DNA of 64,000 bases, from contig JABMQJ010000001.1 in NCBI GenBank assembly GCA_013203315.1, forward strand, positions 16,382-80,381, read 5' to 3'. Numbering within the stretch: position 1 is the first letter of the stretch; each line of letters opens with the position of its first letter. Of the stretch, positions 27,826 through 42,373 are shown piece after piece. The notes below the pieces were generated by a model that ran no database searches, was not told the DNA's origin, and was given only the letters and a program-made list of their open reading frames with translations. Origin of the DNA: Candidatus Omnitrophota bacterium (lineage in GTDB: Bacteria > Omnitrophota > Gorgyraeia > JABMRN01 > RBG-13-46-9). Position numbers and translations under genes: made by a program.

Positions 27826-27915
27826 TCAAGGGCTGGCGCTCACTATTTTTGCGGGTTTTACCCTACGGAATCAGCTGGTATTGGCCTGCGGCTTGGCACT
27901 TTCGCCGGAGCTCTT
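27826..27915. repeat. conserved ~90-bp divergent-promoter element, copy N1 (csoR / nifS intergenic)
   Basis: GTCAAGGG..CAC.ATTTTTGCGGGT..CCCTACGGAAT..GGTATTGGC.TGCGGCTTGGCA.TT..CGGAGC is about 80% identical to the copy at 35225-35345. The left end supplies the minus-strand -35 TTGACA for csoR (TTGACA-18-TATACT). Confidence 0.5.
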
Positions 27916-29832: not shown

Positions 29833-29892
29833 AATATTATTCTATTTTTGATTTTTATTATAAAGAAGCTTATAACGCGGTAGGGTTTTGGA

Positions 29893-29920
29893 TAGGCACT
29901 CTTAAGTGTGCCCTGCTTAC
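29893..29920. repeat. REP-like hairpin element, copy 1 (AGGCAC-TCTTAAGT-GTGCCCT-GCTTAC)
   Basis: Lies between convergent nifU and the 29987-30304 ORF. Near-identical to copy 2. Confidence 0.5.
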
Positions 29921-29986
29921 TTGAAAAATACAAAATAAGATGGCTCTACTTGAATTATTTAAACAAATAGAGCCATCCCGAATGCT

Positions 29987-30304
29987 TTATTTCTTATTTC
30001 CTAAAAGAAATTCCGGATTCTTAATTATTGGGCCATATTCAGGGAACGGAAAAGTAACTGTTTCAAACACTCCGCAAAGAACTCTTCCGCCAAATTTGAA
30101 AATCCCACCTAATGGTCCCCACGTTATGGCACCAAGAATTCCATCCTTCTCATACCCATCTTGGATTCCATTAAGTATTTCAAGCGGGCTTGTAACGATG
30201 TTTGTCACACCTCTGTAAAGTTTTTTGGCGGCTAGATCAGCATAAGCTGCGGTAGCGCTAAATAACATTACACCGATAAGAAGCAGGATAATTAGCTTTT
30301 TCAT
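29987..30304 (-). CDS. small secreted protein (signal peptide), hypothetical
   Basis: MKKLIILLLIGVMLFSATAAYA signal peptide; Gly-rich; 105 aa. Confidence 0.4.
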   Translation of the reverse strand: MKKLIILLLIGVMLFSATAAYADLAAKKLYRGVTNIVTSPLEILNGIQDGYEKDGILGAITWGPLGGIFKFGGRVLCGVFETVTFPFPEYGPIIKNPEFLLGNKK

Positions 30305-30374
30305 TTTTTTACCTCCTTATTTTAAATATAGTATACCCAATGAAAATCAATACTGCAAATATACTTCAGTTATC

Positions 30375-30410
30375 CACAGGGTAGGGCACTCTTAAGTGTG
30401 CCCTGCTTGC
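30375..30410. repeat. REP-like hairpin element, copy 2 (CACAGGGTAGGGCAC-TCTTAAGT-GTGCCCT-GCTTGC)
   Basis: Overlaps the 3' end of the tautomerase gene. The stop codon TAA lies inside the hairpin loop (CTTAAG). Confidence 0.5.
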
Positions 30411-30595
30411 TTTCTGTCGCAAATTAACTGGCCGCCGACTCCAACGTTTTCCGGTGCATTTTCCTTGATTACCGCTACAATAACCGCGGGAGGTAACTTA
30501 TATGCCTTTACTGCTGCTTCAGTCACTTCTTTGATTAAAGCTCGTTTCACCTCTAAATCTTTTATCTTTGGTCCTTCCACTGTAATATTAGGCAT
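30392..30595 (-). CDS. 4-oxalocrotonate tautomerase family protein
   Basis: 67 aa, starts MPNITVE with the catalytic Pro1 after Met; beta-alpha-beta tautomerase fold. Confidence 0.7.
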   Translation of the reverse strand: MPNITVEGPKIKDLEVKRALIKEVTEAAVKAYKLPPAVIVAVIKENAPENVGVGGQLICDRKQAGHT

Positions 30596-30624
30596 TCTTC
30601 CCCCTTTTTTGGATTTTTACTCTT

Positions 30625-30691
30625 GTGCCATTTCAGAATCTGAACTCCTGTCTGCCGGCAGGTAGACAGGCTATTTTTGAAAATGGTTCAC
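30625..30691. repeat. intergenic repeat family, copy A (GC palindrome plus conserved core ..TTCAGATTCTGAAAtGG..)
   Basis: Plus strand reads GTGCCATTTCAGAATCTGAACTCCTGTCTGCCGGCAGGTAGACAGGCTATTTTTGAAAATGGTTCAC. It is an imperfect ~65-bp palindrome, about 30 nt upstream of the tautomerase ATG. Confidence 0.6.
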
Positions 30692-30747
30692 TGTCCTCAA
30701 TTTTAACGGTGTTTAAGTGGGTATACAGGGTGAGGATATGCTATGGC

Positions 30748-31173
30748 TCAGTCTACCTGATGCGCAGTCAAGAACATAGACTTCTCGAGAACAGTGAAAA
30801 AATCCTGATAAGACTCCGGATTATCGACAGCCCTAAGCCCAAATTGAGCATTTGCCCTAACCAATAGTTGCGTTTCTCCTCTGGGCCTTACCGTAACAGT
30901 CATCTTTAATAAAGTATGCCTTGTAAATTTTGATGCTGTTACAGAGCCCAAGCTTAAATCTGCTCTATCAATAACAAATTCTAAATCTTGAAGAGTGCTT
31001 ATTACTGTCCTAAGCATTTTTTTTCTATCGGTAGTATCAAAAGCCCTTGTTTGTATGCTACGCAATTGAACTTGGCTCTGTTCGGCATCAATTGTTCGCT
31101 GGGCAGTTGTTGTACAACCCGCTAAAGATAAAACGAAAAATAAAAGAAGAAGACCTCTTAACATTATTTTCAT
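30748..31173 (-). CDS. lipoprotein, hypothetical (paralog of 31170-31742)
   Basis: Lipobox LSLAGC. Shares the pattern Q.R..Q.R.F.T...L....LQD.EF..D...SLG.V.ASK with the adjacent gene. Confidence 0.5.
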   Translation of the reverse strand: MKIMLRGLLLLFFVLSLAGCTTTAQRTIDAEQSQVQLRSIQTRAFDTTDRKKMLRTVISTLQDLEFVIDRADLSLGSVTASKFTRHTLLKMTVTVRPRGETQLLVRANAQFGLRAVDNPESYQDFFTVLEKSMFLTAHQVD

Positions 31174-31742
31174 ATTTCCTGCCCTTCAAGGAATATTGCT
31201 TTTGATACTTTGTCGAAGAAACCTTGGTATAATTCTGGTCCTTTCAAAGTCTCCAGTCTAGAAACGTTTCCCAGTCTGTTCCAGACAATTCTCTGAAAGG
31301 TAGTGCGGACGATTAATTTATTTCCTTCGGCGTTTAGCTTACTAACAACGGATACTCTAATTTTCTGCTCTTTATCAATATAGTCAAAAGCGTTTGTATT
31401 TGTGCCTGAGAGTGCGGCGAGGGCAACTGCTGCGGTTGCTGCCGCAACCTGAACTGCATCTGTTGCATCTCTACTTTTTGAAGCTACAACAAGCCCTAAT
31501 TCTGTTTCGCTATCGTCAAGCGTAAAGCCCATATCTTGAAGAGCACCGGCGCAGGCTGAGAGTACTTCTGCTTCGTTTATCGTTTCAAATTGCCGCATTT
31601 GTAACTGGCGTACTTGCAGACTGTCCTCTGATAGGGTAAATAATTTTTTAGGGGTGGTAGCAATACAACCTGTTATAGAAATGCACAAAACAAGGAGTGA
31701 CGGTAAGATAAAGTCTTTTTTTAATTTTGTAACTTTAAGCAT
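31170..31742 (-). CDS. lipoprotein, hypothetical (paralog of 30748-31173)
   Basis: Lipobox ISITGC; same domain pattern as the downstream paralog; 190 aa. Confidence 0.5.
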   Translation of the reverse strand: MLKVTKLKKDFILPSLLVLCISITGCIATTPKKLFTLSEDSLQVRQLQMRQFETINEAEVLSACAGALQDMGFTLDDSETELGLVVASKSRDATDAVQVAAATAAVALAALSGTNTNAFDYIDKEQKIRVSVVSKLNAEGNKLIVRTTFQRIVWNRLGNVSRLETLKGPELYQGFFDKVSKAIFLEGQEI

Positions 31743-31744
31743 AT

Positions 31745-32143
31745 TTAAAATTTAGAAGCGTGATATGCAAAATCTCTTACTTTGCCCTCATTGTCAAACT
31801 TGATAACAATGGTCAAGGTTCTCTGCGTAGTCGATTTTGCTCCGGCGGTCCCAGGTGTTAGAAATTTTAGACCGGCATTGCTATCCGAATATACTATATC
31901 AGTAGCTATTTTATCGTAGACCCATACTTCCCGTCGCTGCTCATCAGTGGTTACAACATTGGGAGAACCTAATGTCTCTACAACCTTCGATGAGGGCATT
32001 CCGATCAAAATTTCACGCTGGACTTTGCCCACAGTTATCCTATCCCCGGTATCATCCTGCACTTCTCTTCTATGATAACTAGCTGACGCACATCCCATTA
32101 AGAATATTAAAGAAACAACTACTATAATAAGTTTTTTATCCAT
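31745..32143 (-). CDS. lipoprotein with BamE/SmpA_OmlA-like motif
   Basis: Lipobox LMGC; GMPSSKVVETLGSPN resembles BamE-family motifs. Confidence 0.45.
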   Translation of the reverse strand: MDKKLIIVVVSLIFLMGCASASYHRREVQDDTGDRITVGKVQREILIGMPSSKVVETLGSPNVVTTDEQRREVWVYDKIATDIVYSDSNAGLKFLTPGTAGAKSTTQRTLTIVIKFDNEGKVRDFAYHASKF

Positions 32144-32176
32144 GATTCCCCCCTATTTTCATTAGTATTGTTTTAT

Positions 32177-32205
32177 ATTTTAGTCTTGCCGGTATTGAAT
32201 GTCAA
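32177..32205 (-). promoter_or_regulatory. sigma70-type promoter of the three-lipoprotein operon (TTGACA-17-TAAAAT)
   Basis: Minus strand reads cTTGACAttcaataccggcaagacTAAAATataaaac, about 35 nt upstream of the ATG at 32143. Confidence 0.6.
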
Positions 32206-32237
32206 GCCTATTTAGCGATTCTCTATCTGAACTACCC

Positions 32238-32300
32238 TTCGACCGTTTCAGAATCTAAATTCCTACCTAACGGTAGGCAGGCCGGCAGGTTATTTTTGAA
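32238..32300. repeat. intergenic repeat family, copy B
   Basis: Plus strand reads TTCGACCGTTTCAGAATCTAAATTCCTACCTAACGGTAGGCAGGCCGGCAGGTTATTTTTGAA. It abuts the arfB stop codon and lies upstream of the lipoprotein promoter. Confidence 0.6.
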
Positions 32301-32723
32301 TTAGAAGTCCTCGCTTTTTAAACCATGCCTTGAACGTAGTTTTTTCTTTTCCGCCCTCTTCTTTTTATTCCTAAGCATCTTTTCTTTTGCTCTGCGGGAT
32401 CGCCGGCGTTTTTGCCTTCTTATCTTTTCTATCCTTTTTCTTTCTTCCGAATGCCTTCCCAGTATGTGCGCTTCGATTTTGCCCGTGAGGCGCCTGCGCG
32501 CTATAAATCTATTTAAAGCCTGCGAGCGCTCTTCCTGGCATTTTACCTCTATGCCGGTCGGCCCATGCCTAAGATGCACGCAGGTAGATACCTTATTAAC
32601 ATTTTGACCGCCCTTTCCGCCTGAACGGACAAACCACTCCTCCATGTCCTGTTCGCGGATACCAAGCTTCCGCATCTTCGCCTTCAGGGCTTCTTCTTTA
32701 CTGCTGCTCACACCGAATTGCAT
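32301..32723 (-). CDS. arfB: alternative ribosome-rescue factor ArfB (peptidyl-tRNA hydrolase, GGQ motif)
   Basis: GGQ motif in [34 protein letters not shown], plus a basic C-terminal tail; 140 aa. Confidence 0.8.
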
Positions 32724-32736
32724 AATTGAAATCCAC

Positions 32737-32787
32737 TTTTCGACCGTTTAAGAATCTGAACTCCTGCCTGCCGGCTTTAAAGTAACA
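32737..32787. repeat. intergenic repeat family, copy C (truncated right half)
   Basis: Plus strand reads TTTTCGACCGTTTAAGAATCTGAACTCCTGCCTGCCGGC. On the minus strand the core ends 14-23 nt before the arfB ATG. Confidence 0.55.
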
Positions 32788-32796
32788 AATCGATCA

Positions 32797-33162
32797 CTAG
32801 GCGGAATAGACTAAGAGAGCTCCGAAAGCTAAGGCCAAAAGACTGATCAGGCGCATGGATAAAATAGGTTTTCCCTGCCACCAGTCAAGATAGGTATATA
32901 TCGATTTTGGTTTTATCACAAGTAAAAGCACACCCTTTATGATCGACCAGATACCAAGTACCTTAATCAGTAATACTATCCTGCACTGCGGGGCAGCAAT
33001 TAAAAAGACGATACCGAAAAGAAGTGCCAAAATACCGCCGACCTTTAGCCTTTTTTCATTTCTCCAGAACGCAATATATCCTTTTAAAGTATTTTTCCTT
33101 ACTAAAAAAAGGATTCCAATAACCATAATAATTACACCAAAAAGCCTGACAACCATAACCAT
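32797..33162 (-). CDS. hypothetical small membrane protein
   Basis: 121 aa with 3-4 TM helices. Confidence 0.4.
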   Translation of the reverse strand: MVMVVRLFGVIIMVIGILFLVRKNTLKGYIAFWRNEKRLKVGGILALLFGIVFLIAAPQCRIVLLIKVLGIWSIIKGVLLLVIKPKSIYTYLDWWQGKPILSMRLISLLALAFGALLVYSA

Positions 33163-33183
33163 AAGTACCTCCCTTTTTTACTC

Positions 33184-33242
33184 TTCGACCATTTCAGAAT
33201 CTGAACTACTGTCTGCTAGCAGGTAGGCTCTACTTTGTCTTA
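33184..33242. repeat. intergenic repeat family, copy D
   Basis: Plus strand reads TTCGACCATTTCAGAATCTGAACTACTGTCTGCTAGCAGGTAGGCTCTACTTTGTCTTAA. It overlaps the stop codon of the upstream zinc-ribbon gene. Confidence 0.55.
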
Positions 33243-33734
33243 AAACCCAAGAAACATTAGCCACCTGGCACGCCTTCCCAGTAAATCAGCTCGTTCAACC
33301 CTGTTAATATCTCGCAGTAATTTATCACGCGTTTCCGTTATGCCACGTTCAGTAATTTTTAGCTTCTCATATTCTATTCCGCCGGCTTTAATAAACTCAA
33401 CGGCTTTCTGCAATTCTCCTTCATCGAAAAACGTCCCATGTTTTTTACACTTATCGACAACAATTCCCGAGTGATGCATGTAGTTTTTGCGCCACATCAA
33501 TCTACTACAACGGGGGCATTTGCAATACTTTACTTTTTCCGTACGCCCCAAAGGTTTATATACCTTGTGTAAATCACGTAGCTCACTCACGGTAAAGACT
33601 TCCGGAATTATCTTCAATACCTGTTTTTCTTCGAACTTATCTACCCATACACCTTTACATTTTGGACAAATGTCGGTTTCGATACCGTTTTCCTTGAACA
33701 CCTTCATTTCAATATCACATTTGGGACATTTCAT
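33240..33734 (-). CDS. double zinc-ribbon (zf-TFIIB-like) protein
   Basis: Two CPxC...CPxCxGxWxD modules (CPKCDIEM...CPKCKGVWVD; CKCPRCSRLM...CKKHGTFFDEGEL). Confidence 0.5.
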   Translation of the reverse strand: MKCPKCDIEMKVFKENGIETDICPKCKGVWVDKFEEKQVLKIIPEVFTVSELRDLHKVYKPLGRTEKVKYCKCPRCSRLMWRKNYMHHSGIVVDKCKKHGTFFDEGELQKAVEFIKAGGIEYEKLKITERGITETRDKLLRDINRVERADLLGRRARWLMFLGF

Positions 33735-33807
33735 TTTCCTCTCCTATATAAACTTCTCCCTGCCTATTTAAAATCGCGGACGTTATAAAGCTACCGCCGG
33801 GACAGGC

Positions 33808-34473
33808 CTAAGATCGTGCTTTGCCCCGCCCCATACCTTCCCGGAGGCCAACCACCAGAAATAACATTCCGACTATCTGGATAAGATGAAAAATACCGTT
33901 GTTATCAAATTTCCAAATAAGCCGGGCAGCAATATCCTTGTTAGCTTGAAAAATTGCGGCGATGATTGTGAAGAGAACCCCGATCGCTATTAATCCGGCG
34001 CCGCCGAGTCGCTTTCGCAAGGCCAACCAGCTGTAAGCGATCAAAACAAAGGTCATGGTAATTGCCTCGTAAATAATAAAAACCAGAAAAGTTCTCGGAA
34101 AAAGCAGGTTCACCGCGTAAAAGGCTACCCCAATCGCAAGCATGACCGGAAGCATCCGACGGACAGCAGCGCGGCCCAGCATGTCGTAGATGGCCCCAAG
34201 GATAAATAAAACAACCACGAAACCCAATGCCAAAAAGAGTGGTTGCCACAGAATATTCTCTAATGCCTCGGACATTTTAAGGCCATGCAGTAATGCCCCC
34301 GATGCGGACGAAAAGGTGACCAGCCCAAAGAACCATGACCAGATATTTGTTCTCTGCATATCACGCTGCTTGGTTCGGCGCAGGTAAAAGAGGCAAGCCG
34401 CGGCAACTAAGGCTAAAACCGCATCTGTCACGGCTGTCGTTTGCTCTATTGGTATATTAGTGATTTCCAGCAT
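33808..34473 (-). CDS. hypothetical polytopic membrane protein
   Basis: 221 aa with about 6 TM helices. Confidence 0.4.
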   Translation of the reverse strand: MLEITNIPIEQTTAVTDAVLALVAAACLFYLRRTKQRDMQRTNIWSWFFGLVTFSSASGALLHGLKMSEALENILWQPLFLALGFVVVLFILGAIYDMLGRAAVRRMLPVMLAIGVAFYAVNLLFPRTFLVFIIYEAITMTFVLIAYSWLALRKRLGGAGLIAIGVLFTIIAAIFQANKDIAARLIWKFDNNGIFHLIQIVGMLFLVVGLREGMGRGKARS

Positions 34474-34509
34474 TAAATTCGTAACCTTAGACCGTTTTCG
34501 ATAAAATGA

Positions 34510-35148
34510 TTATCTATCTATCAGTTTACTGACCGTCTCCATGCAATGATTCACAATCTCTTTAATAATATTTAACATATCAAGATATCGGACCTTTGCC
34601 CATTCATCACAAATTCCCTTTGCTGACCTATCTATATGGTTAAGGCGACTTTTTTCTATTAATGCGTAGAGGGATGATTTATTTTTTAAAATATTTTTGC
34701 CTAACTTCCTATCATTAGTCTTCACCGCCACAATTGTAACTGACAAAATCTCTTCTATATTGTTACATAGCTCCTTATATTCTTGCAATGCTTTGTCACT
34801 AAATAACAATTTTTCACTAACTTTATACTCAATTCGTTCTACTAAATCTACACATAGATCTCCCATCCTCTTAATTGCGCCGATAATGCTTACCAAATCA
34901 ATGACTATTTTTTTAGCTTTGCCTGATGATTTCTTTTTGGAAATTTCGATTGCTAAGGTAGTTAAATTAGTATAAGCTTCATTAATTTTTGTTTCATTCT
35001 TAAGCACCTGATCTAAGAGCTTGATATCGTTCTTCATCAAACCATTAAAGTTAGTACGAAACATTATTTGAACCCGTTCTAACATTTCTATGGTCTCTTG
35101 TCTTAATGAAGCTATTTTTCTTAATTCAGCTTTATTTAATTTGGCCAT
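34510..35148 (-). CDS. PhoU-like domain protein
   Basis: 212 aa all-helical protein with two PhoU-like repeats (ETKINEAYTNLTTLAIEI; IEYKVSEKLL...). Confidence 0.45.
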   Translation of the reverse strand: MAKLNKAELRKIASLRQETIEMLERVQIMFRTNFNGLMKNDIKLLDQVLKNETKINEAYTNLTTLAIEISKKKSSGKAKKIVIDLVSIIGAIKRMGDLCVDLVERIEYKVSEKLLFSDKALQEYKELCNNIEEILSVTIVAVKTNDRKLGKNILKNKSSLYALIEKSRLNHIDRSAKGICDEWAKVRYLDMLNIIKEIVNHCMETVSKLIDR

Positions 35149-35162
35149 AGTTTTACTCCCTC

Positions 35163-35230
35163 TTTTACCGTCTCAGAATCTAAAACCTGCCTACTACTAA
35201 TATTGTAGGCTTGGCGTTGTTCAAAGTCAA
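35163..35230. repeat. intergenic repeat family, copy E (degenerate)
   Basis: Plus strand reads TTTTACCGTCTCAGAATCTAAAACCTGCCTACTACTAATATTGTAGGCTTGG. It is in the 5' leader of the PhoU-like gene, downstream of TTGACT-17-TACAAT. Confidence 0.5.
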
Positions 35231-35345
35231 GGGGCAAAAAAGTGACATTTTTGCGGGTACTGCCCTACGGAATGAGAGGGTATTGGCGTGCGGCTTGGCA
35301 TTTAACGACGGAGCCCTGCCAATACCCTCTCATTCCGTTGATTGG
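35225..35345. repeat. conserved divergent-promoter element, copy N2 (PhoU-like / nitroreductase intergenic)
   Basis: Shares the same conserved blocks as N1. It also contains a perfect 20-bp inverted repeat, CGGAATGAGAGGGTATTGGC...GCCAATACCCTCTCATTCCG. Confidence 0.5.
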
Positions 35346-35438
35346 CAGGGACTCGCAAAAATATGCTTTTATATTGAGGGGTTTTTTGTTATAATTTTAG
35401 TCATTCAAACCGATAAACTATCAAGAAGGAGGAAATCA

Positions 35439-36095
35439 ATGAAGATATTAATTTTAATAGTAGCGATGTGCATGATGGCAGCGAATGTGTTTGCCGAGGG
35501 GGATATGGCAACGCAGGCAAGTCCTTCGGTGACGATAAAACTTCCGACGCCCGAGACGAGCGGAGGCAAACCGTTGATGCAGGCGCTGAAAGATAGAAAA
35601 TCGAGTAGAAACTTTAGTGACAAGGAGTTACCACAGCAGGTATTATCCGACCTTTTGTGGGCAGCGTTCGGCATAAACAGGCCGGATTCAGGAATGCGCA
35701 CGGCACCCACAGCGCATAATATGCAGGAAATCTATATTTTTGTGGCAATGTCCAAAGGCCTTTATCTTTATGAACCAAAGCAGCATATATTGAAGCTGAT
35801 GCTAGCCGAAGATATACGCGCTGTAACCGGTATGCAGGAGTTTGTGGCAACAGCACCGGTGAACCTTATCTATGTGGCGGAATATTCCAAGATGGCCAAT
35901 ATAGGCAGTGAGAAAGACTTTTACTCAGCTACAGACACCGGATTTATTTCTCAGAATGTATATTTATATTGCGCATCGAAGGGCCTGGCAACAGTCGTAC
36001 GCGGCTGGGTAGACAGGAAAGCTCTGGGAAAAGCAATGAACCTACGCCCCGACCAGAAGATAATCCTTGCCCAGACGGTCGGGTACGAAAAATAA
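35439..36095 (+). CDS. nitroreductase-family protein with N-terminal signal peptide
   Basis: Starts at ATG after AAGGAGGAAATCA. MKILILIVAMCMMAANVFAEG signal peptide, then a nitroreductase fold (DLLWAAFGINR, TAPTAHNMQ). The ORF-track N-terminal extension is spurious. Confidence 0.7.
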   Translation: MKILILIVAMCMMAANVFAEGDMATQASPSVTIKLPTPETSGGKPLMQALKDRKSSRNFSDKELPQQVLSDLLWAAFGINRPDSGMRTAPTAHNMQEIYIFVAMSKGLYLYEPKQHILKLMLAEDIRAVTGMQEFVATAPVNLIYVAEYSKMANIGSEKDFYSATDTGFISQNVYLYCASKGLATVVRGWVDRKALGKAMNLRPDQKIILAQTVGYEK

Positions 36096-36107
36096 CGAAG
36101 AGTTATT

Positions 36108-36143
36108 CACAGGGCAGGGCGCTCTTGGGGGTGCCCTGCTTGC
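36108..36143. repeat. REP-like hairpin element, copy 3 (CACAGGGCAGGGCGC-TCTTGGGGG-TGCCCT-GCTTGC)
   Basis: Lies between the convergent nitroreductase and NYN genes. The 3' end abuts the NYN stop codon. Confidence 0.5.
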
Positions 36144-36643
36144 TATAGCACGCCTTTACCCTCTAGATATTCCTCGTAATAATCAGTTACTTTTCTGTTT
36201 TTCGTTGCGCTAAACGACTTATCCGCATGCATGGCCGGTTTATTGGCATGTTTTTTGGTTTTTTGCAAGAATGTTGGGTATTCAACCCGCGCACCGTGCA
36301 CGCGAGAGCCATTTCGTACCCGGTTATCATGCGATATGACAGTTATGCTAGATGGCTCCTTCGAATTCTTCACCATGCTTATTATGCGATCATCCGCTGC
36401 TTCTTTGGCGCGCGTAAAAACGCAGTCAATGCCGCCTATCTTTGTGCGGGAATAATCCATAAAGTCGACATCCCTCCCGTCAAATACTATAATAATTTCC
36501 GCATTAACACGGCTACGCTTCCATCCCGCCACATGCATTGCCAGGGCGCTCCTGGCTTCGGCAAGGCTTTCCTTAAGCTTCGCCGTGAGCTCCGAAATCC
36601 GGTAAATAACGTTATATCCGTCTAGTATAAATATCTTTTTCAT
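36143..36643 (-). CDS. NYN-domain protein, YacP/Rae1-like predicted ribonuclease
   Basis: ILDGYNVIY N-terminus plus PIN-like acidic residues; 166 aa. Confidence 0.7.
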   Translation of the reverse strand: MKKIFILDGYNVIYRISELTAKLKESLAEARSALAMHVAGWKRSRVNAEIIIVFDGRDVDFMDYSRTKIGGIDCVFTRAKEAADDRIISMVKNSKEPSSITVISHDNRVRNGSRVHGARVEYPTFLQKTKKHANKPAMHADKSFSATKNRKVTDYYEEYLEGKGVL

Positions 36644-36655
36644 ATCCGTGAGTTA

Positions 36656-36693
36656 TCTTTCGACCGTTTCAGAATTTGGGCTCAACGCAGAAC
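36656..36693. repeat. intergenic repeat family, copy F (core only)
   Basis: Plus strand reads TCTTTCGACCGTTTCAGAATTTGGGCTC. It lies in the 5' leader of the NYN gene, 13 nt from ATG and downstream of a TATAAT box. Confidence 0.55.
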
Positions 36694-36721
36694 AGTGTAT
36701 TTAAATTATACCCCTAAAATA

Positions 36722-36768
36722 GAAACGCCTCAAGGAAAACCTTGAGGCGTCACGGTACACTGTTTCGT
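36722..36768 (-). terminator. rho-independent terminator of 36776-37603, overlapped by the TTGAGG-17-TATAAT promoter for the NYN gene
   Basis: Minus strand reads CGCCTCAAGGttttCCTTGAGGCG followed by TTTCTATTTT. The same region reads ccTTGAGGcgtttctattttaggggTATAAT. Confidence 0.6.
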
Positions 36769-36775
36769 TCAAATT

Positions 36776-37603
36776 TTATTCTATATCCTCGTCTTTCCCG
36801 TTAATGAATTGCAACATGGATGCTCTGTTTTTTTGAATACGGTTTGCAATAAGTTTCAGGGACCCTTCGTCTAACTCCGGTTTTTCTGTCTCGGTTTCGG
36901 ATTGCGCGGGTGTTTCTGTAATCTTGGTGGTTACTGCAATTGTGCAACCCGTGTTACGAGACGCCTCGAGATCGCTTGAAAAAAAGTTAACCATATACGG
37001 CTTAGGGTCGTGGTACACAATCGTCTGAACAAGCCAAGCGTCTTCATACCACATTTCACCCTTATCAAGAGGTTCTCCCGGCTGTGGCAGATGTGGCTGA
37101 TTATATACAATTAACTGGACAAGCCGGCCATCCTTATAGTTATACTCGGGATAACCGTCTATTTCGCTGGGATCTATCGGAAGGTACTCCCTTATATCCA
37201 TATTGGGAAACTTCAGGTCCACCGGGTATTTTTCGTATTCTTTTTTTGGTATCAACGGTTCTCTGGGCAACTCTATTATCCTGGCAATCGGGTTTTCTAA
37301 GCCTGGCTTCGGAGCCAAACCGCGTACGGGATCGGACCCTATGTCTTTATTAGGGTATTTAATTATCTCGAAACCCTTTTCGGGCAGCTCGATATTATCC
37401 CCTATTTCTTTTTTCACGATCAACTCTTTTTTCGTTTCTAGCACTTCCTTAAACTGTTTCACGGATCTGCTCGGAATTTCTTTGAGTTCTTTATCTTTAT
37501 ATGCATTCGCTTTGCCTTTTTCGGCAAGGCAAGGACTCTGAGAAACCACAATACCCAAACAGATTACGAGCACGATAACCTTAATTGTCATTCTGCCATT
37601 CAT
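36776..37603 (-). CDS. secreted Pro/Glu-rich protein, hypothetical
   Basis: Signal peptide MNGRMTIKVIVLVICLGIVVSQSPCLA; 275 aa. Confidence 0.4.
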   Translation of the reverse strand: MNGRMTIKVIVLVICLGIVVSQSPCLAEKGKANAYKDKELKEIPSRSVKQFKEVLETKKELIVKKEIGDNIELPEKGFEIIKYPNKDIGSDPVRGLAPKPGLENPIARIIELPREPLIPKKEYEKYPVDLKFPNMDIREYLPIDPSEIDGYPEYNYKDGRLVQLIVYNQPHLPQPGEPLDKGEMWYEDAWLVQTIVYHDPKPYMVNFFSSDLEASRNTGCTIAVTTKITETPAQSETETEKPELDEGSLKLIANRIQKNRASMLQFINGKDEDIE

Positions 37604-37733
37604 TTCATTTACCCCCTTCTTGCTTACGGTTTTTAAAACTCTTTACTTTCGTGTCAAAAAAATAACTCGAATCTCATACTCTATAACAAAATCACAGCTT
37701 GTTTACTCCTGTTATTTTCTGACTATTTTATTC

Positions 37734-39167
37734 TTAATTTTGCTTACTTCTTATCATTTGAGCTTCAGGGCTTCTCGGGTATTTTCGTAATACAAGCGCA
37801 TAATAGTGCTCTGCTTCCTTTGTATTATTCAGTCTTTCTTCATATATAATTCCCGTAGCATACAGTGCCATGCTTGCAAACGTAGACTCGGGATATTTAC
37901 GAGAGACCTTTTGGAAAGTCTCTATCGCTTTCTCGGACATGCCAAGATAGTTGTAATAGGCACCTATAAAAAGGAAGATCTGTGGCTTATGGCCCAAACT
38001 CGGATGCATGGCCATTATCGCTTCCAGCGTCCTAATTCCCTGCAAGTGTTTACTTCTGTCCTTTGTCTTTATCGCATTGTCTATTAACTCAATCGCCTTC
38101 CTAAGGTCAAGAGCGGCTTCTTTCGGCTCGAGGTCAGATATATATAATGGGGCGGGCCTTAAGAGCTCTCTTGTCCTGTATTTTCCATTACTGATTAAAA
38201 GCGCAACCTGGACTTTCTCTCCGATTTCATAGAACTCCGTCATTTCCTGCCATTCTTTTTCCAATAGCTGGCGCGGGGCCATGGGTGCCTCCCCCTTAAA
38301 TACTTCTGTTGCCTCCCCGCCACCTAGTATTACCTGCTGCTGTTTAAGCGCTCCTTCTGGTATGAATGTTGACACAACCTTTACCCTGCCGTTTAATACA
38401 CCAAGCCGCGTCATCATTGAGGGCTGTGCGGAAACATCTACTAAAAAATCAGTTCCCAGCGCCGTGGCTGTGGCTTCGGGAGTTGCCATGACAAAACGTG
38501 ACCCCTTGAATTTTTTGCTTAAACGCACCAGCGTTTTACCTTTTTTGAGGTTGTATACTGTCTTGCCGGGCACATATTTTGGCAATAACTTCGCTATTTT
38601 TATTTCAGAATTCTGCTTAATCCTGACCCTGTATTTATTTGTATGCGCTATGTCAACAAAAGATCCACTGTCAACGGTTAGCGTATCGTTCTTGCCGAGT
38701 AGTAGCCCTTTGGTTCCTTTGGCCCACTTACGCCCCCTATGACTGTAAATCATTACTTTGCCCTTTACCGTCACAATCTGTACGGGCTGGACCACTAAAT
38801 ATGTAAGAACCCCGTATGCCGACACAAACAAAAGGAGCGTTACGACAACCCTTGCAAGCATGGGCGCAGGCAGGACAAAGACTTCCCGGGTTCTTTGAAG
38901 AACGCGAGTTACAATGAAACCTATCCTGTTTTCTTCCCTGCTTTTTAAAGTGTTACGCAGTTTTTGATTGAAGGCCCGGTCGAAAGAGGTAGACAGCTTT
39001 TCTCTATCCGCATGCCTAATGACCAGATTCGAATTCTTTAATAAAAGGGCTGTTTTCCTGCAGGATTCGCACTCGCTAAGATGGCTCTCTACCCTTTCCC
39101 TTTCAGGGAGAGAGCACCTCTGATCTATATATCTCGATAATAATTCGAAAGGCATTTTGTGCTTCAT
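37734..39167 (-). CDS. anti-sigma factor (zf-HC2 N-terminus, TM, FecR-like domain, C-terminal TPR repeats)
   Basis: N-terminal HLSECESCRK; one TM helix; FecR-like beta domain; C-terminal TPR repeats (YYNYLGMSEKAIETFQKV...). Overlaps the sigma factor gene by 4 nt. Confidence 0.65.
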   Translation of the reverse strand: MKHKMPFELLSRYIDQRCSLPERERVESHLSECESCRKTALLLKNSNLVIRHADREKLSTSFDRAFNQKLRNTLKSREENRIGFIVTRVLQRTREVFVLPAPMLARVVVTLLLFVSAYGVLTYLVVQPVQIVTVKGKVMIYSHRGRKWAKGTKGLLLGKNDTLTVDSGSFVDIAHTNKYRVRIKQNSEIKIAKLLPKYVPGKTVYNLKKGKTLVRLSKKFKGSRFVMATPEATATALGTDFLVDVSAQPSMMTRLGVLNGRVKVVSTFIPEGALKQQQVILGGGEATEVFKGEAPMAPRQLLEKEWQEMTEFYEIGEKVQVALLISNGKYRTRELLRPAPLYISDLEPKEAALDLRKAIELIDNAIKTKDRSKHLQGIRTLEAIMAMHPSLGHKPQIFLFIGAYYNYLGMSEKAIETFQKVSRKYPESTFASMALYATGIIYEERLNNTKEAEHYYALVLRKYPRSPEAQMIRSKQN

Positions 39168-39811
39168 TTTACGCCACTTTTTTGCGGAATTTTAATTTTC
39201 TTTATAAACTGTTTCCGTGCCCTTGCAAGCCGCGAAGAAATTGTCTTCATATTTGTTTTCAGCACTTTGGCTGCCTCTTCGTAAGAAAGGCCTTCTATTA
39301 CGCAGAGCGCAATGACATCCCTGTAAAGCGGATGAAGGCTTTTCAGGGCATTTTCTATCGCTTCCTTGAGTTCCTTATTTTTCACGAAGGAATCTGCCGA
39401 AAACCCGTCTTTCGTCAATACGCCTTCGAGGTTGATATCCATGTCCCCTTTTCCCGCTCGACCGGACAAAGATACCTGCCGCATCGAACTCCTTTTCTTT
39501 AATTCGTTTTTTGCCAGATTCGAAGCTATTGTATAAATCCAGGCCTTAAAAAGCCCCCTGGGCTCGTATCTATTGATGTTAAGGTATATGTTTATAAAAA
39601 CTTCCTGCGTAAGCTCTTCGGCAACCGCCCTATCGCCTATCTTTCTGTTGATGAAATTAAATATTCTTTCCTTGTACGCATTATACAATTCATCAAAGCA
39701 GGCCCGGTCGCCTTCCCTGAATTTCCTTACCAGGGCATCGTCTTTATTCATTACCCTCTCTATATATATTAAACAATATTTTGTGCCGAAAACTCCACGT
39801 TCTATAGACAT
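39164..39811 (-). CDS. ECF (sigma-24-type) RNA polymerase sigma factor
   Basis: Region 2 (YNAYKERIFNFINRKIGDRAVAEELTQEVFINIY) and region 4 (SYEEAAKVLKTNMKTISSRLARARK). Start is probably the internal MNKDD near 39751. Confidence 0.8.
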   Translation of the reverse strand: MSIERGVFGTKYCLIYIERVMNKDDALVRKFREGDRACFDELYNAYKERIFNFINRKIGDRAVAEELTQEVFINIYLNINRYEPRGLFKAWIYTIASNLAKNELKKRSSMRQVSLSGRAGKGDMDINLEGVLTKDGFSADSFVKNKELKEAIENALKSLHPLYRDVIALCVIEGLSYEEAAKVLKTNMKTISSRLARARKQFIKKIKIPQKSGVK

Positions 39812-39840
39812 TCTGTATCAGCTTGCTTTTTTTGTCAATA

Positions 39841-39880
39841 AAAAAAACGGGACTGGTTTTTACCAAATCCCGTTTTTTTT
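39841..39880 (-). terminator. bidirectional rho-independent terminator
   Basis: Sequence A8-ACGGGACTGGtttttaCCAAATCCCGT-T8. On the minus strand the hairpin is followed by a T8 run, after the stop of 39910-41463. Confidence 0.75.
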
Positions 39881-39909
39881 GTTATCTGCGATTTAACGCT
39901 GATTGTTAC

Positions 39910-41463
39910 TTATTCATCTTCCTCTTCGCTTCCTGTCTCATCTTCGGCATCGTATGAGCTGAAGGCCTCCAGGAGAATTATGGCGCCTTTACCGCCTGAA
40001 TAAACAGCACCCGGCGTTTCCCGGAGAATACCTTTAAATGCTTCCTGCAACTTATTTTTGTGCTGCATCCATTCGTTTTCCAACAACGAAATCTTGTTAA
40101 CCCGGCCTGTGTTGAAGTTTTTTGCGAAATCCATTTTTGCGGCAGGTACTTTTCCGCGTGTCCCAAACTTTTCGGCTTTTTCAAAAAGATTATTTGGCTT
40201 TGATGCGGATCCCCCCTCCTGTATCGGGCTTTGGTTTTTGCCGGTCTTATAGGCGTAAATCGGTTGCGCTTCATATGCTGCTTTTTGATCTTCGATAACC
40301 TGTGGCTTATACAATTTAATATCTACGCTTTCGGTTCGCTCATCGTTTAATTTTCCGGCAATCTTTTGCTTGGTAACATTGAGGCCAACGAAAATTTCCT
40401 TTATTTCTGTTATTCTTCCGGGCTCTACGCCGGGTGGCCGCGTATATGTTACTGCTATTGTCCAATCATCATTGGTAATGGTAAGGGTGTATCCTCCGCC
40501 GTAAGCTGATTCTGACAAGCTCAAAACAGTATCTCCAAACTGTTGCGGCATGGGTTGTCCCCAATAGTTTCTGGCAAACCACACCAGTATGACTCCTAAA
40601 AGCTCGCGCATTTCACCGTCCATGCGGGATACGCCAAAACCGCTACTTTCCGGGCCTTCATACCGCGAATACCAGCCCCCGTGAGGCAGCCTATAAAAGT
40701 TTCTGTATTCTTCTATATCATCCAAATCATTGAACTCGCCATCCCCGTTTGTATCAAGGAGATTCTTTGCGAGTTCGTCCAAAAAGTCTCGTAAATCCTC
40801 GTCGATTTGACGCTGAAAAAGTTCGGCGAAGGATTCTTCAACGGGATCCCTTGCATCAACGGGATCCCTTGCATCAATAATAATAAGCTTGCTGTTTTCG
40901 TCGTCCCACTTAATCGTAAAACCATCACCGATCGGTATCTTCATAGAGACACCTTCGTCTTTCTCTTTATCCCCGTCCGGATCTCCGTTATTACCTTTAA
41001 GCGCTTCGAGCGCGCTTTCAAGATCTCTTAATCTAATATCTAATTTTTCACGAATATCTTTTTCCGAATCGTCATCCTGATATATACTGATTATATCTTC
41101 CAGAATATCCGAGAGCCCCTTGCTTGGCAGTCCCTTGTTTAGCAGATTTTCGATCTCTTTATTCAGCAAGCCTTTGTATGTTTCAAGGATTTTTGGCAAA
41201 GGCGGATCATTCTTCGGCTTTATCGTTATGGACAAGTTATCTCTGGATTTCTCAGAGAGACTATTTTTCAATTCCAGGTACTGACTCACCAGGGCTTCCC
41301 GTTGGGGGTTATATACAGCGACAATCTTGCCGGAAACCTTTGCCTTGGGCTTCTCCGAAATGCTTTTTGCGTGCGCAAAATCACAGGGAAGCGTCGAAGA
41401 GACAAAAGCCACCACCACTGACATCGCTAAAATCCTATTAAATATTCTTTTCCTGTTTAACAC
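39910..41463 (-). CDS. secreted acidic protein with internal DARDPV tandem repeat, hypothetical
   Basis: GTG start. Signal-like N-terminus; Asp/Glu-rich; an 18-nt direct DNA repeat at 40840-40877 encodes DARDPVDARDPV. Confidence 0.4.
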   Translation of the reverse strand: MLNRKRIFNRILAMSVVVAFVSSTLPCDFAHAKSISEKPKAKVSGKIVAVYNPQREALVSQYLELKNSLSEKSRDNLSITIKPKNDPPLPKILETYKGLLNKEIENLLNKGLPSKGLSDILEDIISIYQDDDSEKDIREKLDIRLRDLESALEALKGNNGDPDGDKEKDEGVSMKIPIGDGFTIKWDDENSKLIIIDARDPVDARDPVEESFAELFQRQIDEDLRDFLDELAKNLLDTNGDGEFNDLDDIEEYRNFYRLPHGGWYSRYEGPESSGFGVSRMDGEMRELLGVILVWFARNYWGQPMPQQFGDTVLSLSESAYGGGYTLTITNDDWTIAVTYTRPPGVEPGRITEIKEIFVGLNVTKQKIAGKLNDERTESVDIKLYKPQVIEDQKAAYEAQPIYAYKTGKNQSPIQEGGSASKPNNLFEKAEKFGTRGKVPAAKMDFAKNFNTGRVNKISLLENEWMQHKNKLQEAFKGILRETPGAVYSGGKGAIILLEAFSSYDAEDETGSEEEDE

Positions 41464-41687
41464 TTTTTTAACTCCGTTCTAAAGTGGGTAAAAAAAATAC
41501 CCCTCACACACGGTGTGCCTTGTATATACAAGTGTACCATAAATTAAAGGGTCTTGTGGGGGGAAATATCTTACTTTTTTATAGCCTAACAAGGTTAAGT
41601 GGCATTAGGAATTATTCTAGGGACGGTTCTCGCTAAGTCTTTTATTTACAGTTGGTTGCGGATTGCTTCATCTACTCTTGTACCGTT

Positions 41688-41719
41688 TCGGGCGCTCTTG
41701 GGGGTGTCCTGCTTGTTCA
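41688..41719. repeat. REP-like hairpin element, copy 4 (GGGCGC-TCTTGGGGG-TGTCCT-GCTTGTTCA)
   Basis: Near-identical to copy 3. It overlaps the last codons and TGA stop of 41717-41950. Confidence 0.5.
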
Positions 41720-41950
41720 CTTCCCCTTTGACCCTCTAATTGCCCAGAGGATAAGACGGATAAGTAAATAGACGGGGTATCCGAGAAGCATAAACATGAA
41801 CGCGAATGTGACTATTTGCTGACCGGCTTGTTCACCAACTATTGCAAACTCGGTCATACGCAGGGCAAATATGACAATTGCGGATATGACCACGATGCCG
41901 AGCAATATGAGCCCTTCCTTCTTTATGATTTTTTTTATACCATCTTTCAT
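41717..41950 (-). CDS. small membrane protein, hypothetical
   Basis: 77 aa with 2 TM helices; SD AAGGAG. Confidence 0.35.
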   Translation of the reverse strand: MKDGIKKIIKKEGLILLGIVVISAIVIFALRMTEFAIVGEQAGQQIVTFAFMFMLLGYPVYLLIRLILWAIRGSKGK

Positions 41951-41964
41951 CCAGACATCTCCTT

Positions 41965-41978
41965 GCCTGCCGGCAGGC
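41965..41978. repeat. GC palindrome GCCTGCCGGCAGGC (same palindrome as in the intergenic repeat family) directly upstream of the SD of 41717-41950
   Basis: Perfect palindrome; the same CTGCC(T)GCCGGCAGG motif is seen in copies A, B and C. Confidence 0.5.
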
Positions 41979-41993
41979 AGACTTTAATTAGGC

Positions 41994-42028
41994 CCCAGGG
42001 ACAGTTCTTAATCTGTCCCTTGCCTGAA
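41994..42028. repeat. REP-like hairpin element, copy 5 (CCAGGGACAG-TTCTTAAT-CTGTCCCT-TGCCTG)
   Basis: Same architecture as the other copies (AGGGnnn-TCTTAAnT-nnnCCCT-TGC). Lies 25 nt after the stop of 42053-42280. Confidence 0.45.
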
Positions 42029-42052
42029 CCGTTCCTATTTTCAATTTTTGAC

Positions 42053-42280: not shown

Positions 42281-42315
42281 ATTTTCCTCCTTTTTTTAAA
42301 ATCGTTATTGTTTAG

Positions 42316-42360
42316 CTTTCGACCGTTTCAGAATCCGGAAATTCTTATCAGCTCGTGCAT
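42316..42360. repeat. intergenic repeat family, copy G (variant palindrome AGAATTTCCGGATTCT)
   Basis: Plus strand reads CTTTCGACCGTTTCAGAATCCGGAAATTCTTATCAG. On the minus strand the core ends about 36 nt before the ATG of 42053-42280. Confidence 0.55.
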
Positions 42361-42373
42361 ATCTTCCTCCTAT

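Follow-up and report, generated by a model that had tools for sequence, protein, structure and literature searches.

Why should the same short hairpin recur at the ends of genes within one part of a bacterial genome, and what kind of element is it? The question is raised by a stretch of 64,000 nucleotides from a Candidatus Omnitrophota bacterium (the window), for which an earlier note had listed five copies of a REP-like hairpin between 30 and 42 kb.

Hairpin repeats at the 3′ ends of genes

Searches with an HMM and a covariance model define a hairpin repeat of ~45 bases, F2, of which the window holds four copies, all on the + strand. They are given here together with a fifth hairpin of a different family:

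29878..29921, + strand: F2 copy 1 (c1), core GGCAC-TCTTAAGT-GTGCC at 29895-29912
30368..30411, + strand: F2 copy 2 (c2), the reference copy, 11-bp stem 30379-30389 / 30398-30408, loop TCTTAAGT
36101..36144, + strand: F2 copy 3 (c3), 13-bp stem with a tetraloop, -23 to -27 kcal/mol
41674..41717, + strand: F2 copy 4 (c4), a hybrid, F2 hairpin 41690-41709 joined to the right half of an F1 repeat
41985..42035, + strand: F3 hairpin (copy 5 of the earlier note), stem 41997-42004 / 42013-42020, loop TTCTTAAT

Pattern searches of the 64-kb window, exact or with three mismatches, match 29893-29920 and 30383-30410 (0.00 expected), and a degenerate hairpin pattern adds 36118-36140 (0.03 expected). All four copies are recovered by nhmmer (30368-30411, 36101-36144, 29878-29921 and 41674-41717; E 1e-11 to 3e-7) and, at 50-67 bits, by the covariance model run with its filters off, for which no further match on the + strand of the 64 kb falls below E 0.5. 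Four of the five proposed copies therefore stand with their coordinates. The hairpin at 41994-42028 is genuine (-22 kcal/mol, z -5.6), yet it is ruled out as a member of F2: neither the nhmmer nor the covariance model detects it, and comparison with two metagenome contigs, L026 and L038, places it in a family F3 with the consensus GGGAC.G ... TTAAGAACYGTCCCT. The two hairpins share GCAAGG...TTAAGAAC...CCCT, F3 having ACAG/CTGT as its inner stem instead; judged by these sequences, F3 is related to F2 yet a distinct family.

All four F2 copies are intergenic and fall within a single 12.5-kb block. The region 29.8-42.4 kb has 16 intergenic gaps, and these contain 11 of 11 copies when F2 is counted together with F1, against none in the other 48 gaps of the window. 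Despite a coding fraction of ~92%, the copies are strictly intergenic and strongly clustered, in 16 of 64 gaps. This block has a lower GC content than the rest. Every F2 copy, as well as both orthologues in L026 and L038, sits between unidirectional or convergent ORFs, and c2, c3 and c4 lie 0-5 nt from a stop codon or overlap one, which agrees with the original description of short imperfect, REP-like palindromes at gene 3′ ends.

As described earlier, c1 and c3 lie between convergent genes. The former, whose outer stem is split by an 8-9 nt insertion, is found between the intrinsic terminator of a − strand 105-aa gene and the + strand nifU stop (29832), at 46 nt from that stop and, behind the terminator, at 66 nt from the stop of the 105-aa gene. 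The latter fills the 47 nt that separate the stop of a nitroreductase gene (36095) from that of a convergent YacP/NYN gene (36143). The TAG of this second gene (36143-36643) and the TGA (41717-41719) of a 77-aa gene (41717-41950), which c4 adjoins, do abut the conserved GCTTG/CAAGC flank. In c2, the tautomerase stop TAA was correctly placed inside the hairpin loop (30392-30394), and the element additionally encodes the codons QAGHT at 30395-30409 of the tautomerase gene. Where 14 homologues end in DRK(xK), the tautomerase ends in QAGHT*, and QAGHT is missing from 14 of 14; c2 has overwritten the native stop, adding a foreign tail.

The two loop subfamilies were likewise recovered, TCTTAAGT in c1 and c2 and TCTTGGGG in c3 and c4, the latter pair having 27 nt in common with one mismatch. 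In its left arm c4 resembles L038, in its loop and right arm it matches copy 3 exactly, and its orthologues retain the other loop type, which shows that sequence is exchanged among the copies of a single genome.

A mosaic of small repeats and the order of genes

F2 shares its block with other small repeats, F1 being the most frequent:

30613..30673, − strand: F1 copy upstream of the tautomerase gene, containing an H1 palindrome at 30647-30670
32227..32286, − strand: F1 copy, then followed by a sigma70-like promoter (32205-32177)
32728..32787, − strand: F1 copy upstream of an RF-1-domain (ArfB-like) gene
33174..33230, − strand: F1 copy with an H1-type palindrome (33209-33226)
35153..35211, − strand: F1 copy upstream of a PhoU-domain gene
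36647..36705, − strand: 5′-truncated F1 copy in the YacP gene leader, downstream of a sigma70-like promoter (36733-36705)
41620..41629, − strand: degenerate right arm of F3 (GAACCGTCCC), downstream of c4
41963..41980, strand not assigned: H1 palindrome TTGCCTGCCGGCAGGCAG, also in L038 and absent from L026 at the same site
42308..42364, − strand: 5′-truncated F1 copy upstream of a 75-aa gene

The points of 5′ truncation vary among F1 copies, and several units of the block come with a promoter and terminator of their own, located to either side of F1. The arm at 41620..41629 is orthologous to a complete F3 hairpin in L038, its partner having been lost. A similar erosion is seen in c4, which carries the right half of F1 (GAAACGGTACAAGAGTA, 41674-41690 as read on the − strand) and lacks ~95 nt that the orthologous L038 locus has; c4 is a deletion/conversion hybrid with F1.

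Three metagenome contigs, whose neighbouring genes are 79-93% identical to those of the window, carry the elements: L019 has F1, and L026 and L038 have F2 plus F1 or F3. In L026 and L038, F2 is at the orthologous site with stop codons adjoining it. L038 has the order F2, 65 nt, F1, F3; in L026, F2 and the right half of F1 are followed by a different gene, synteny diverging right there. In L019 (93% nucleotide identity), the order is PhoU-domain gene, remnant of the 77-aa gene, YacP, F1 and 75-aa gene, against 75-aa gene, 77-aa gene, 5 kb, YacP, F2, nitroreductase, F1 and PhoU-domain gene in the window, meaning that the unit of F1 and 75-aa gene seen at 42308..42364 comes after YacP and that the YacP gene is accompanied by F2 in one genome and by F1 in another. 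Homology stops exactly at the stop codons; L019 also shows an internal gene deletion and one junction outside any repeat. As L019 (1161 nt) and L026 (672 nt) are short metagenome contigs, chimeric assembly keeps a small probability, although their junctions do not fall at perfect repeats. The proposal that F2 and F1 delimit gene units in the 30-42 kb block gains strength from these breaks in synteny.

Further afield, homologues at ≤85% identity (L020-L025, L027-L037 and L039) have no F2 beside them, and scans with one pattern found none in 185,579 species genomes, JGI metagenomes or IMG/VR, collections that do not contain the source genome. The compared loci offer no clean pair of filled and empty sites, so that mobility of F2 is something we infer.

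With a probability of about one half, we regard F2 as a palindromic repeat of the REP/BIME type, intergenic, young and specific to its lineage, and as one of several modules that make up a mosaic. On the best reading, this mosaic of small repeats (F1, F2, F3 and H1) occupies the spaces between genes in a flexible 12.5-kb block of one Omnitrophica lineage, with F2 acting as a recombination substrate that may also fold in + strand RNA. F2 takes up space directly after stop codons, in one case replacing the stop; its copies undergo deletions against neighbouring repeats and coincide with gene-order breakpoints between close relatives. As selfish or near-neutral DNA, such copies would spread and be maintained, whether through a RAYT-type, hairpin-specific transposase encoded at an unlinked locus or through recombination and gene conversion. 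Their main consequence would be to provide short co-oriented patches of homology at which single-gene units could be deleted, excised and re-inserted. Were the hairpin itself under selection, it would presumably be in its + strand form, be it RNA or single-stranded DNA. For the nifSU and nitroreductase units, both convergent and on the + strand, this strand is the 3′ UTR; to the remaining neighbours it is antisense.

Strand preference of the fold and rival readings

F2 hairpins range from 7 to 13 bp in the stem, with a loop of 8-9 nt (or 4 nt). All five hairpins, including the one at 41994-42028, fold more strongly on the + strand (-11.6 to -23.1 vs -3.4 to -19.5 kcal/mol), and c4 does not fold on the − strand (-3.4 kcal/mol). 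The A-to-G change that had been noticed to yield a G-T pair on the + strand only is real and part of a general preference: along the 11-bp helix, 87.9% of cells are paired on the + strand vs 68.2% on the − strand, with ~15 vs 2 G-U cells, and the GGGG loop variant gains two extra pairs, again on the + strand only. In L038, the stem GGACAC/GTGTCC replaces GGGCAC/GTGCCC, a compensatory G-C to A-T exchange on both sides that keeps the hairpin despite the altered stem. Because only six copies are known, covariation statistics are not significant, with shuffle controls doing equally well in 116-284 of 500 trials.

The favoured strand is antisense to most neighbouring genes. For the − strand genes, an intrinsic terminator is ruled out, since their sense strand has no T-run and c4 is unfolded there. 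Bona fide terminators with hairpin and U-run exist in the block (29978-29930, directly upstream of c1, and 36751-36724), and F2 elements are therefore not the terminators of co-directional genes, in keeping with the earlier verdict that they are not canonical ones. That verdict had assumed no U-run on either strand, which holds for the gene-sense strand, whereas c2 and c4 have weak T-rich tails on the + strand. The suggested role as mRNA 3′ stabiliser of adjacent − strand genes is disfavoured, the stem being weaker on that strand and that of c4 unfolded, and the suggested IHF-type role finds no support.

A selected + strand RNA structure is a doubtful alternative, albeit the best of those considered. 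F2 would then be a U-tract-poor terminator or a 3′-end-protecting hairpin for nifSU and the nitroreductase gene, two convergent + strand units whose 3′ UTR includes c1 and c3 (46 and 5 nt downstream of the stops), and an insulator against antisense transcription for the upstream − strand genes. The pairing bias fits this reading, as does a + strand consensus scan that scores c2, c4 and the H1 hairpins as terminator-like (H1 at 30647-30670 is followed by CTATTTTTGA). However, c2 and c4 score so only because of their weak T-rich tails, which fall within coding sequence and do not amount to U-runs; both copies lack a + strand gene upstream, and terminator-like sites in the block are no commoner than in shuffles (17 vs 14.4 ± 3.7). 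Conversion between stem variants accounts for both G-T pairs of c4, and the absence of F2 from relatives at ≤85% identity means that it is not a conserved regulatory device. Rfam gives no match at the gathering score in the window and, for 29.7-42.5 kb, chance-level matches (E ≥1.5), none of them on the elements.

Somewhat less probable still is a gene-cassette array with F1 and F2 as its junction modules, in which units are excised and re-inserted as in an integron or CALIN with different sites. This would be the work of RecA, using the co-oriented repeats, or of a site-specific recombinase whose gene lies elsewhere. Single, small, unrelated and nearly all co-oriented genes with F1 upstream and F2, F3 or H1 downstream would suit such an array. 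So would the three-unit order permuted without inversion between the window and L019 (ABC vs CBA), the homology that ends at stops, the passage of L026 into a different gene after F2 and the right half of F1, the confinement of the elements to one lower-GC block, and a hairpin favoured antisense to the cassette genes, like attC bottom strands. Yet no integrase, recombinase or transposase, including Y1_Tnp of the RAYT type, was found among window ORFs of at least 150 aa and the smaller ORFs of 28-44 kb. Nor does the whole window contain, on either strand, a pair of attC boxes (RYYYAAC...GTTRRRY, 45-135 nt apart), which together with the lack of a Phage_integrase match speaks against an integron attC or CALIN proper. 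The breakpoints, moreover, are imprecise, given the variable F1 starts, the YacP gene with F2 or F1, and the non-repeat junction and gene deletion of L019; units with their own promoters and terminators fit poorly, and the independent rearranged contigs number only two.

That F2 is a protein-binding DNA site, be it a GGGCAC-N8-GTGCCC operator or a flanking TTATCCACA/TTATTCACA DnaA box for binding or titration, is very improbable. Loop and flank positions are invariant beyond pairing needs (AAG.AGG.CAC, AAGA), but such invariance can also mean that the copies share a recent ancestor; F2 has no linked regulator gene and, against an operator, lies at 3′ ends rather than promoters. The perfect 9-mer TTATCCACA occurs in c2 and L038, c3 deviates only at the degenerate position of TTATNCACA, and two of three matches in 64 kb fall in F2. 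Yet the box is disrupted in L026, c1 lacks it and c4 has lost it by deletion, and 3 matches vs 1.65 expected are no enrichment.

F2 among known repeat systems

The REP/BIME-like repeat that we favour can be set against four known systems. With intrinsic (Rho-independent) terminators, F2 shares a G+C-rich stem-loop directly after the stop, but has no U-tract on the sense strand. MITE-type gene-end repeats such as Correia/NEMIS, ERIC and Rickettsia RPE are also intergenic with hairpin potential and, as F2 did in the tautomerase gene, can replace a native stop and add foreign residues; at ~45 nt, however, F2 is much shorter than most MITEs, and neither terminal inverted repeats nor a target-site duplication were identified for it.

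The attC sites of integrons and CALINs (Cury et al. 2016, PMC4889954; Bouvier et al. 2009, PMC2727003) resemble F2 as imperfect palindromes 3′ of small, co-oriented, unrelated genes, in the preferential folding of the strand antisense to these genes, in a unit order that varies between close relatives and, for CALINs, in having no integrase nearby. By contrast, F2 has no R″/R′ boxes, L boxes or extrahelical-base architecture, its hairpin measures 30 nt rather than the at least 55 nt of attC, its junction positions are imprecise, and the units have promoters and terminators of their own and in many cases housekeeping-like genes.

REPs are palindromes of 20-40 bp found in unidirectional or convergent gaps within 20 bp of gene 3′ ends, sometimes clustered in blocks, which can supply stop codons, contain G-T pairs, form stem sub-families and carry a degenerate GYAG (Di Nocera et al. 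2013, PMC3733652). They differ from F2 in being high-copy and dispersed, whereas the 64 kb examined hold four F2 copies clustered in 12.5 kb; in many families forming inverted dimers, F2 being co-oriented throughout without head-to-head or tail-to-tail dimers; in an unpaired tag; in a shorter loop than the conserved 8-9 nt of F2; and in going with a RAYT (Y1 transposase) gene, none of which was found in the window. The stem-foot tag of F2 on the + strand reads GTAG in c2 and L038, GCAG in c3 and L026, ATAG in c1 and TTCG in c4, mostly paired with CTRC, which amounts to a degenerate GYAG at one stem foot in four of six copies. Alongside this degenerate motif, F2 has in common with the GTAG- and CGTC-tagged REPs and BIMEs (Di Nocera et al. 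2013, PMC3733652) a palindrome of ~30 bp that is extragenic and near 3′ ends, supplies or overlaps stop codons, has alternative complementary stem bases and G-T pairs, occurs in mosaics with other small repeats and is restricted to a lineage. Rather than a new kind of system, F2 looks most like the REP/BIME-type palindromes of other bacteria.

A hairpin repeat that overwrites gene ends

The earlier note had reported five REP-like hairpins at the 3′ ends of genes. By pattern, nhmmer and covariance-model searches, four of the five are copies of a real, well-delimited repeat family, F2, which a repeat search of the window recovers as a single 44-nt family.

Copies of the F2 hairpin repeat and their folding energies (+ strand / − strand)
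29878-29921: copy 1, −14.6 / −9.6 kcal/mol
30368-30411: copy 2, −19.1 / −12.9 kcal/mol
36101-36144: copy 3, −23.1 / −17.2 kcal/mol
41674-41717: copy 4, −11.6 / −3.4 kcal/mol

The four copies have nhmmer E values of 1e-11 to 3e-7 and score 50-67 bits against the covariance model run with filters off. A 28-nt consensus matches exactly at 30383-30410 and with three mismatches at 29893-29920 (0.00 expected), and a degenerate hairpin pattern also matches 36118-36140 (0.03 expected). The covariance model found no diverged copy beyond these four, and nothing else on the + strand fell below E 0.5. Much of the original description is borne out, including the two types of loop, a convergent-gene setting for copies 1 and 3, a tautomerase TAA inside the loop and the two stop codons abutting the conserved flank. 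The proposed fifth copy at 41994-42028 does form a good hairpin (−22 kcal/mol, z −5.6), yet it is missed by both nhmmer and the covariance model; comparison with related contigs sets it apart as part of a separate recurring family, F3 (GGGAC.G ... TTAAGAACYGTCCCTAAAG).

Read in gene (− strand) orientation, the consensus derived from alignments A3 and A4 runs from the stop codon through G-Y-AAG-Y-AGG-R-CAC, a loop N-C-Y-Y-AAGA and G-Y-G-Y-CC-T to R-CCC-Y-GTGGATAAC. F2 occupies and overwrites gene 3′ ends. In copies 3 and 4 and in the related metagenome contigs L026 and L038, its (N)CAAG/GTAAG follows directly after the stop codon. In fourteen tautomerase homologues (70-85% identity) the protein stops at ...GGQLICDRK or two residues beyond; the window tautomerase runs on with QAGHT*, encoded by CAAGCAGGGCACACTTAA, a sequence made up of the F2 loop, its left arm and the 5′ flank. 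Here F2 has overwritten the end of the gene.

The window is ordinary chromosome. A protein search found its proteins to be identical to those of an NCBI MAG carrying the annotation 'Candidatus Omnitrophica bacterium' (locus-tag prefix HQ549_) and to those on contigs of the JGI samples 3300032737 and 3300032738. Among its genes, Pfam identifies nifS/nifU, an RND efflux system and NADH dehydrogenase, along with heme, thiamine and sulfur-assimilation genes. Pfam detected no integrase, transposase or Y1/RAYT protein among 68 scanned ORFs (all those of at least 150 aa bar a few overlapping longer genes and, within 28-44 kb, also the smaller ones), ARAGORN no tRNA gene in the window, and no Rfam family reached its gathering score there. 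Coding sequence makes up about 92% of the window, nearly all genes lie on the − strand, and the + strand GC skew is negative throughout. The 16 intergenic gaps of a block at 29.8-42.4 kb hold every copy of F2 (four) and of the first repeat family, F1 (seven), whereas the 48 gaps outside hold none; GC content in the block is slightly lower (40.6-42.2% vs 44-46%).

Folding and a possible strand of action

All four F2 copies fold more stably on the + strand, where 87.9% of the cells of the 11-bp helix are paired as against 68.2% on the − strand. The G-U pairs of the + strand turn into A-C mismatches on the other, and the GGGG loop variant adds two pairs on the + strand only. If the hairpin is functional, it would act on the + strand. 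For copies 1 and 3 this strand corresponds to the 3′ UTRs of nifSU and the nitroreductase gene, and for copies 2 and 4 to antisense RNA; by the logic of GC skew, it is also the leading-strand template. Although the earlier reading of these elements was largely right, its suggestion that they stabilise the mRNAs of adjacent genes is the part least supported.

A sense-strand intrinsic terminator is ruled out for F2: the − strand has no U-run, copy 4 is unfolded there and canonical terminators lie nearby.

Canonical intrinsic terminators in the block
29930-29978, − strand: terminator of the 105-aa gene (29987-30304), directly upstream of F2 copy 1; 16-bp stem followed by UUAUUUUGUAUUUUU
36724-36751, − strand: terminator of the 275-aa gene; 12-bp stem followed by a U-run

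These two sites indicate that the organism uses ordinary terminators. That F2 is instead a selected RNA terminator or insulator on the + strand is doubtful: a scan of this strand does label copies 2 and 4 terminator-like owing to weakly T-rich tails, these tails being coding sequence of the neighbouring genes, and the block shows no excess of such sites (17 vs 14.4 ± 3.7 in shuffles). The stem has evidently been kept, and the alignment hints weakly at selection for pairing; across six F2 sequences, shuffle controls for pairing are not significant and a single clean double-sided stem change is seen, from G-C to A-U in L038. Copy 4 joins the left arm of its L038 orthologue (GGACAC) to a loop and right arm identical to those of copy 3 in the same genome, which points to conversion between copies; both the L026 and the L038 orthologue have a TTAAG loop. 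F2 copies exchange sequence, and part of the wobble signal, as copy 4 illustrates, has a trivial origin.

Companion repeats and rearrangement

F2 shares the block with several other small repeats.

Other repeats of the window and related contigs
30613-30673, 32227-32286, 32728-32787, 33174-33230, 35153-35211, 36647-36705, 42308-42364, − strand: F1 (core GTTCAGATTCTGAAACGGTCGAAG in gene orientation); also L019 677-717 and L038 ~478-512
41994-42028: F3 hairpin; recurs in L026 (same site) and in L038 (after F1), with a one-armed remnant at 41620-41629
41963-41980, 30647-30670, 33209-33226: H1 palindrome (CCTGCCGGCAGG type); also L038 117-132
35244-35356, + strand: near-perfect 113-nt palindrome with 20-bp perfect arms CGGAATGAGAGGGTATTGGC / GCCAATACCCTCTCATTCCG
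27845-27901: 57-nt partial copy of the long palindrome (86% identity), upstream of the + strand nifS

F1 sits 15-35 nt upstream of start codons and is 5′-truncated at differing points, its copies starting with GTTCAGA..., GGATTCTG..., AAATTCTG... or GAAACGG...; a weak remnant of its right half, GAAAACGGTCTAAGG, lies at ~34482-34497. Inspection rejected a promoter role (sigma70, sigma54 or ECF) because F1 lies too close to the ATG, and its position downstream of one sigma70-like promoter at 36.7 kb and upstream of another at 32.2 kb also counts against it. A tRNA-fragment att site was likewise rejected (no tRNA by ARAGORN; the F1 motif GTTCAGATTCTG misfits the T-arm register by inspection), as was the 3′ hairpin of a DGR, since a direct-repeat scan found no template/variable pair and the scanned ORFs include no reverse transcriptase. 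H1, which folds better on the + strand, occurs in the window and in L038 and is missing from the same site in L026; its copy at 30647-30670 is followed by a T-run (CTATTTTTGA) and is therefore terminator-like in the antisense direction.

The long palindrome (−66.7 kcal/mol, z −10) closely precedes the promoter of the nitroreductase gene on the + strand. Counting its partial copy at nifS, each + strand unit is preceded by this palindrome and followed by an F2 hairpin; the palindrome may be MITE-like or form a shared regulatory structure. The mechanical nitroreductase ORF (35211-36095, +; TTG, 294 aa) is probably annotated with too early a start: its nitroreductase domain begins at residue 127, and a sigma70-like promoter at 35368-35395, GAAGGAGG and an ATG at ~35439 point to a shorter protein whose N-terminus resembles a signal peptide. 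Public calls of the gene differ as well (218 aa vs 292 aa).

Homologues of the YacP-like, 77-aa and tautomerase genes were traced to their contigs. F2 recurs at the orthologous site after the 77-aa gene in L026 (neighbour product 88% identical in amino acids) and L038 (79%). L038 has the full arrangement of F2, 65 nt, a complete F1 and F3, and in L026 the right half of F1 comes after F2. Relative to L038, copy 4 in the window lacks ~95 nt between the right arm of F2 and the GAAACGG of F1, so that this 'hybrid' is a deletion between neighbouring repeats. Beside more distant homologues (tautomerase at no more than 85% identity, 10 loci; YacP/77-aa at 65-80%) there is neither F1 nor F2, and these loci yield no empty-site comparison at close range. 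In one of their contigs (L024; JGI 3300009373, 11.6 kb), which contains neither repeat, counterparts of the 105-aa and 77-aa genes follow dnaG-rpoD and are separated by 4.5 kb; its 77-aa homologue, from a more distant relative, is 71% identical. The small genes of the block are thus loosely co-located even without the repeats.

A single F2 pattern, GGCRCTCTTNNNNGTGYCCTGCTT, was scanned against 185,579 GTDB species genomes (9 matches) and JGI metagenome contigs (6 matches), sequences that do not include the source contig; all matches were chance hits in unrelated high-GC or coding DNA. F2 had no match in IMG/VR, where eight matches to an F1 pattern were rejected as conserved phage capsid coding sequence. 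From these searches, the repeat families appear to be confined to one narrow lineage.

Within that lineage, gene order in L019 and L026 differs from that of the window exactly at repeats. The window runs 75-aa gene, F3 and H1, 77-aa gene, F2/F1, 5 kb, F1, YacP, F2, nitroreductase (convergent), F1 and PhoU-domain gene; in L019 (YacP gene 93% identical), the end of the PhoU-domain gene is followed by a 15-codon remnant of the 77-aa gene, YacP, F1 and the 75-aa gene. YacP is therefore followed by F2 in the window and by F1 in L019, and similarity between the two ends at the stop codons of the YacP and 75-aa genes. In L026, synteny is lost right after F2 and the F1 right half. The break points are imprecise, and another junction in L019 lies outside any repeat. 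The L019 remnant (110-160) is in frame (MKDDIKKIIRGLKGK*) and at its stop runs straight into the CGGATATG start region of YacP; the 5 kb that part the two genes in the window are missing.

We suggest that the repeats persist as selfish or near-neutral DNA, whose co-oriented homology patches of 25-50 nt would let single-gene units be lost, excised and re-inserted. A dedicated cassette-shuffling system in the block is unlikely: the order of units is indeed permuted, but junctions are imprecise and units have their own promoters. Similarly unlikely is a new type of chromosomal gene-cassette array, whose single-gene units would move out and back in at junction modules, all in one orientation, made of the F1 core GATTCTGAAACGGTCGAAG and the F2, F3 and H1 hairpins; these would be non-attC sites, with the hairpin on the antisense strand and a recombinase elsewhere or none. 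A known integron, attC array or CALIN was rejected, the window having no R″/R′ box pair and the scanned ORFs no integrase. Should the minority possibility of a dedicated cassette-shuffling locus of a new type hold, the block would be far more significant. A protein or DnaA site in F2 is very unlikely, for although its + strand 3′ flank reads TTATCCACA in copy 2 and L038 and TTATTCACA in copy 3, fitting the DnaA-box consensus TTATNCACA (30370-30378 and 36103-36111, +; L038 412-420, − strand of the locus), and two of the three matches in the window fall in F2, three copies have lost the motif and its overall frequency in the window is no higher than expected.

Likeness to REP and BIME elements

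Omnitrophota are an uncultured phylum known only from metagenomes, and to our knowledge small palindromic repeats have not been described in them; the novelty of a REP-like repeat there is modest. What this locus offers is a view of such repeats caught in action at a very short evolutionary distance, between genomes with ~90% identical genes, and of how flexible regions arise in small genomes without obvious mobile-element genes. It is relevant to annotation that repeats have shaped both the apparent 'operons' of the block and the 3′ tails of its small genes, and in the assembly and binning of MAGs the repeats are likely contig breakers.

The REP-type label of the earlier note is the best available. 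F2 is filed as a REP-BIME look-alike and only a putative member of that group. Like REP and BIME elements, it appears to be a young, lineage-specific palindrome, strictly uni- or convergent-intergenic and beside or over stop codons; in known REPs the termini often supply stop codons, and the distance of conv- and uni-REPs from 3′ ends stays within 20 bp (Di Nocera et al., PMC3733652). Its stem sub-variants contain G-T pairs, which are common in REPs (PMC3733652). GTAG or GCAG stands at the + strand stem foot in four of six copies but is mostly paired; the GTAG tag of REPs may degenerate to GYAG, and one REP family is clustered in blocks (PMC3733652). Finally, F2 forms mosaics with other small repeats, its copies are converted, truncated and deleted, and it coincides with rearrangement break points; its placement, stem variants and mosaic behaviour, taken together, fit the REP-BIME type.
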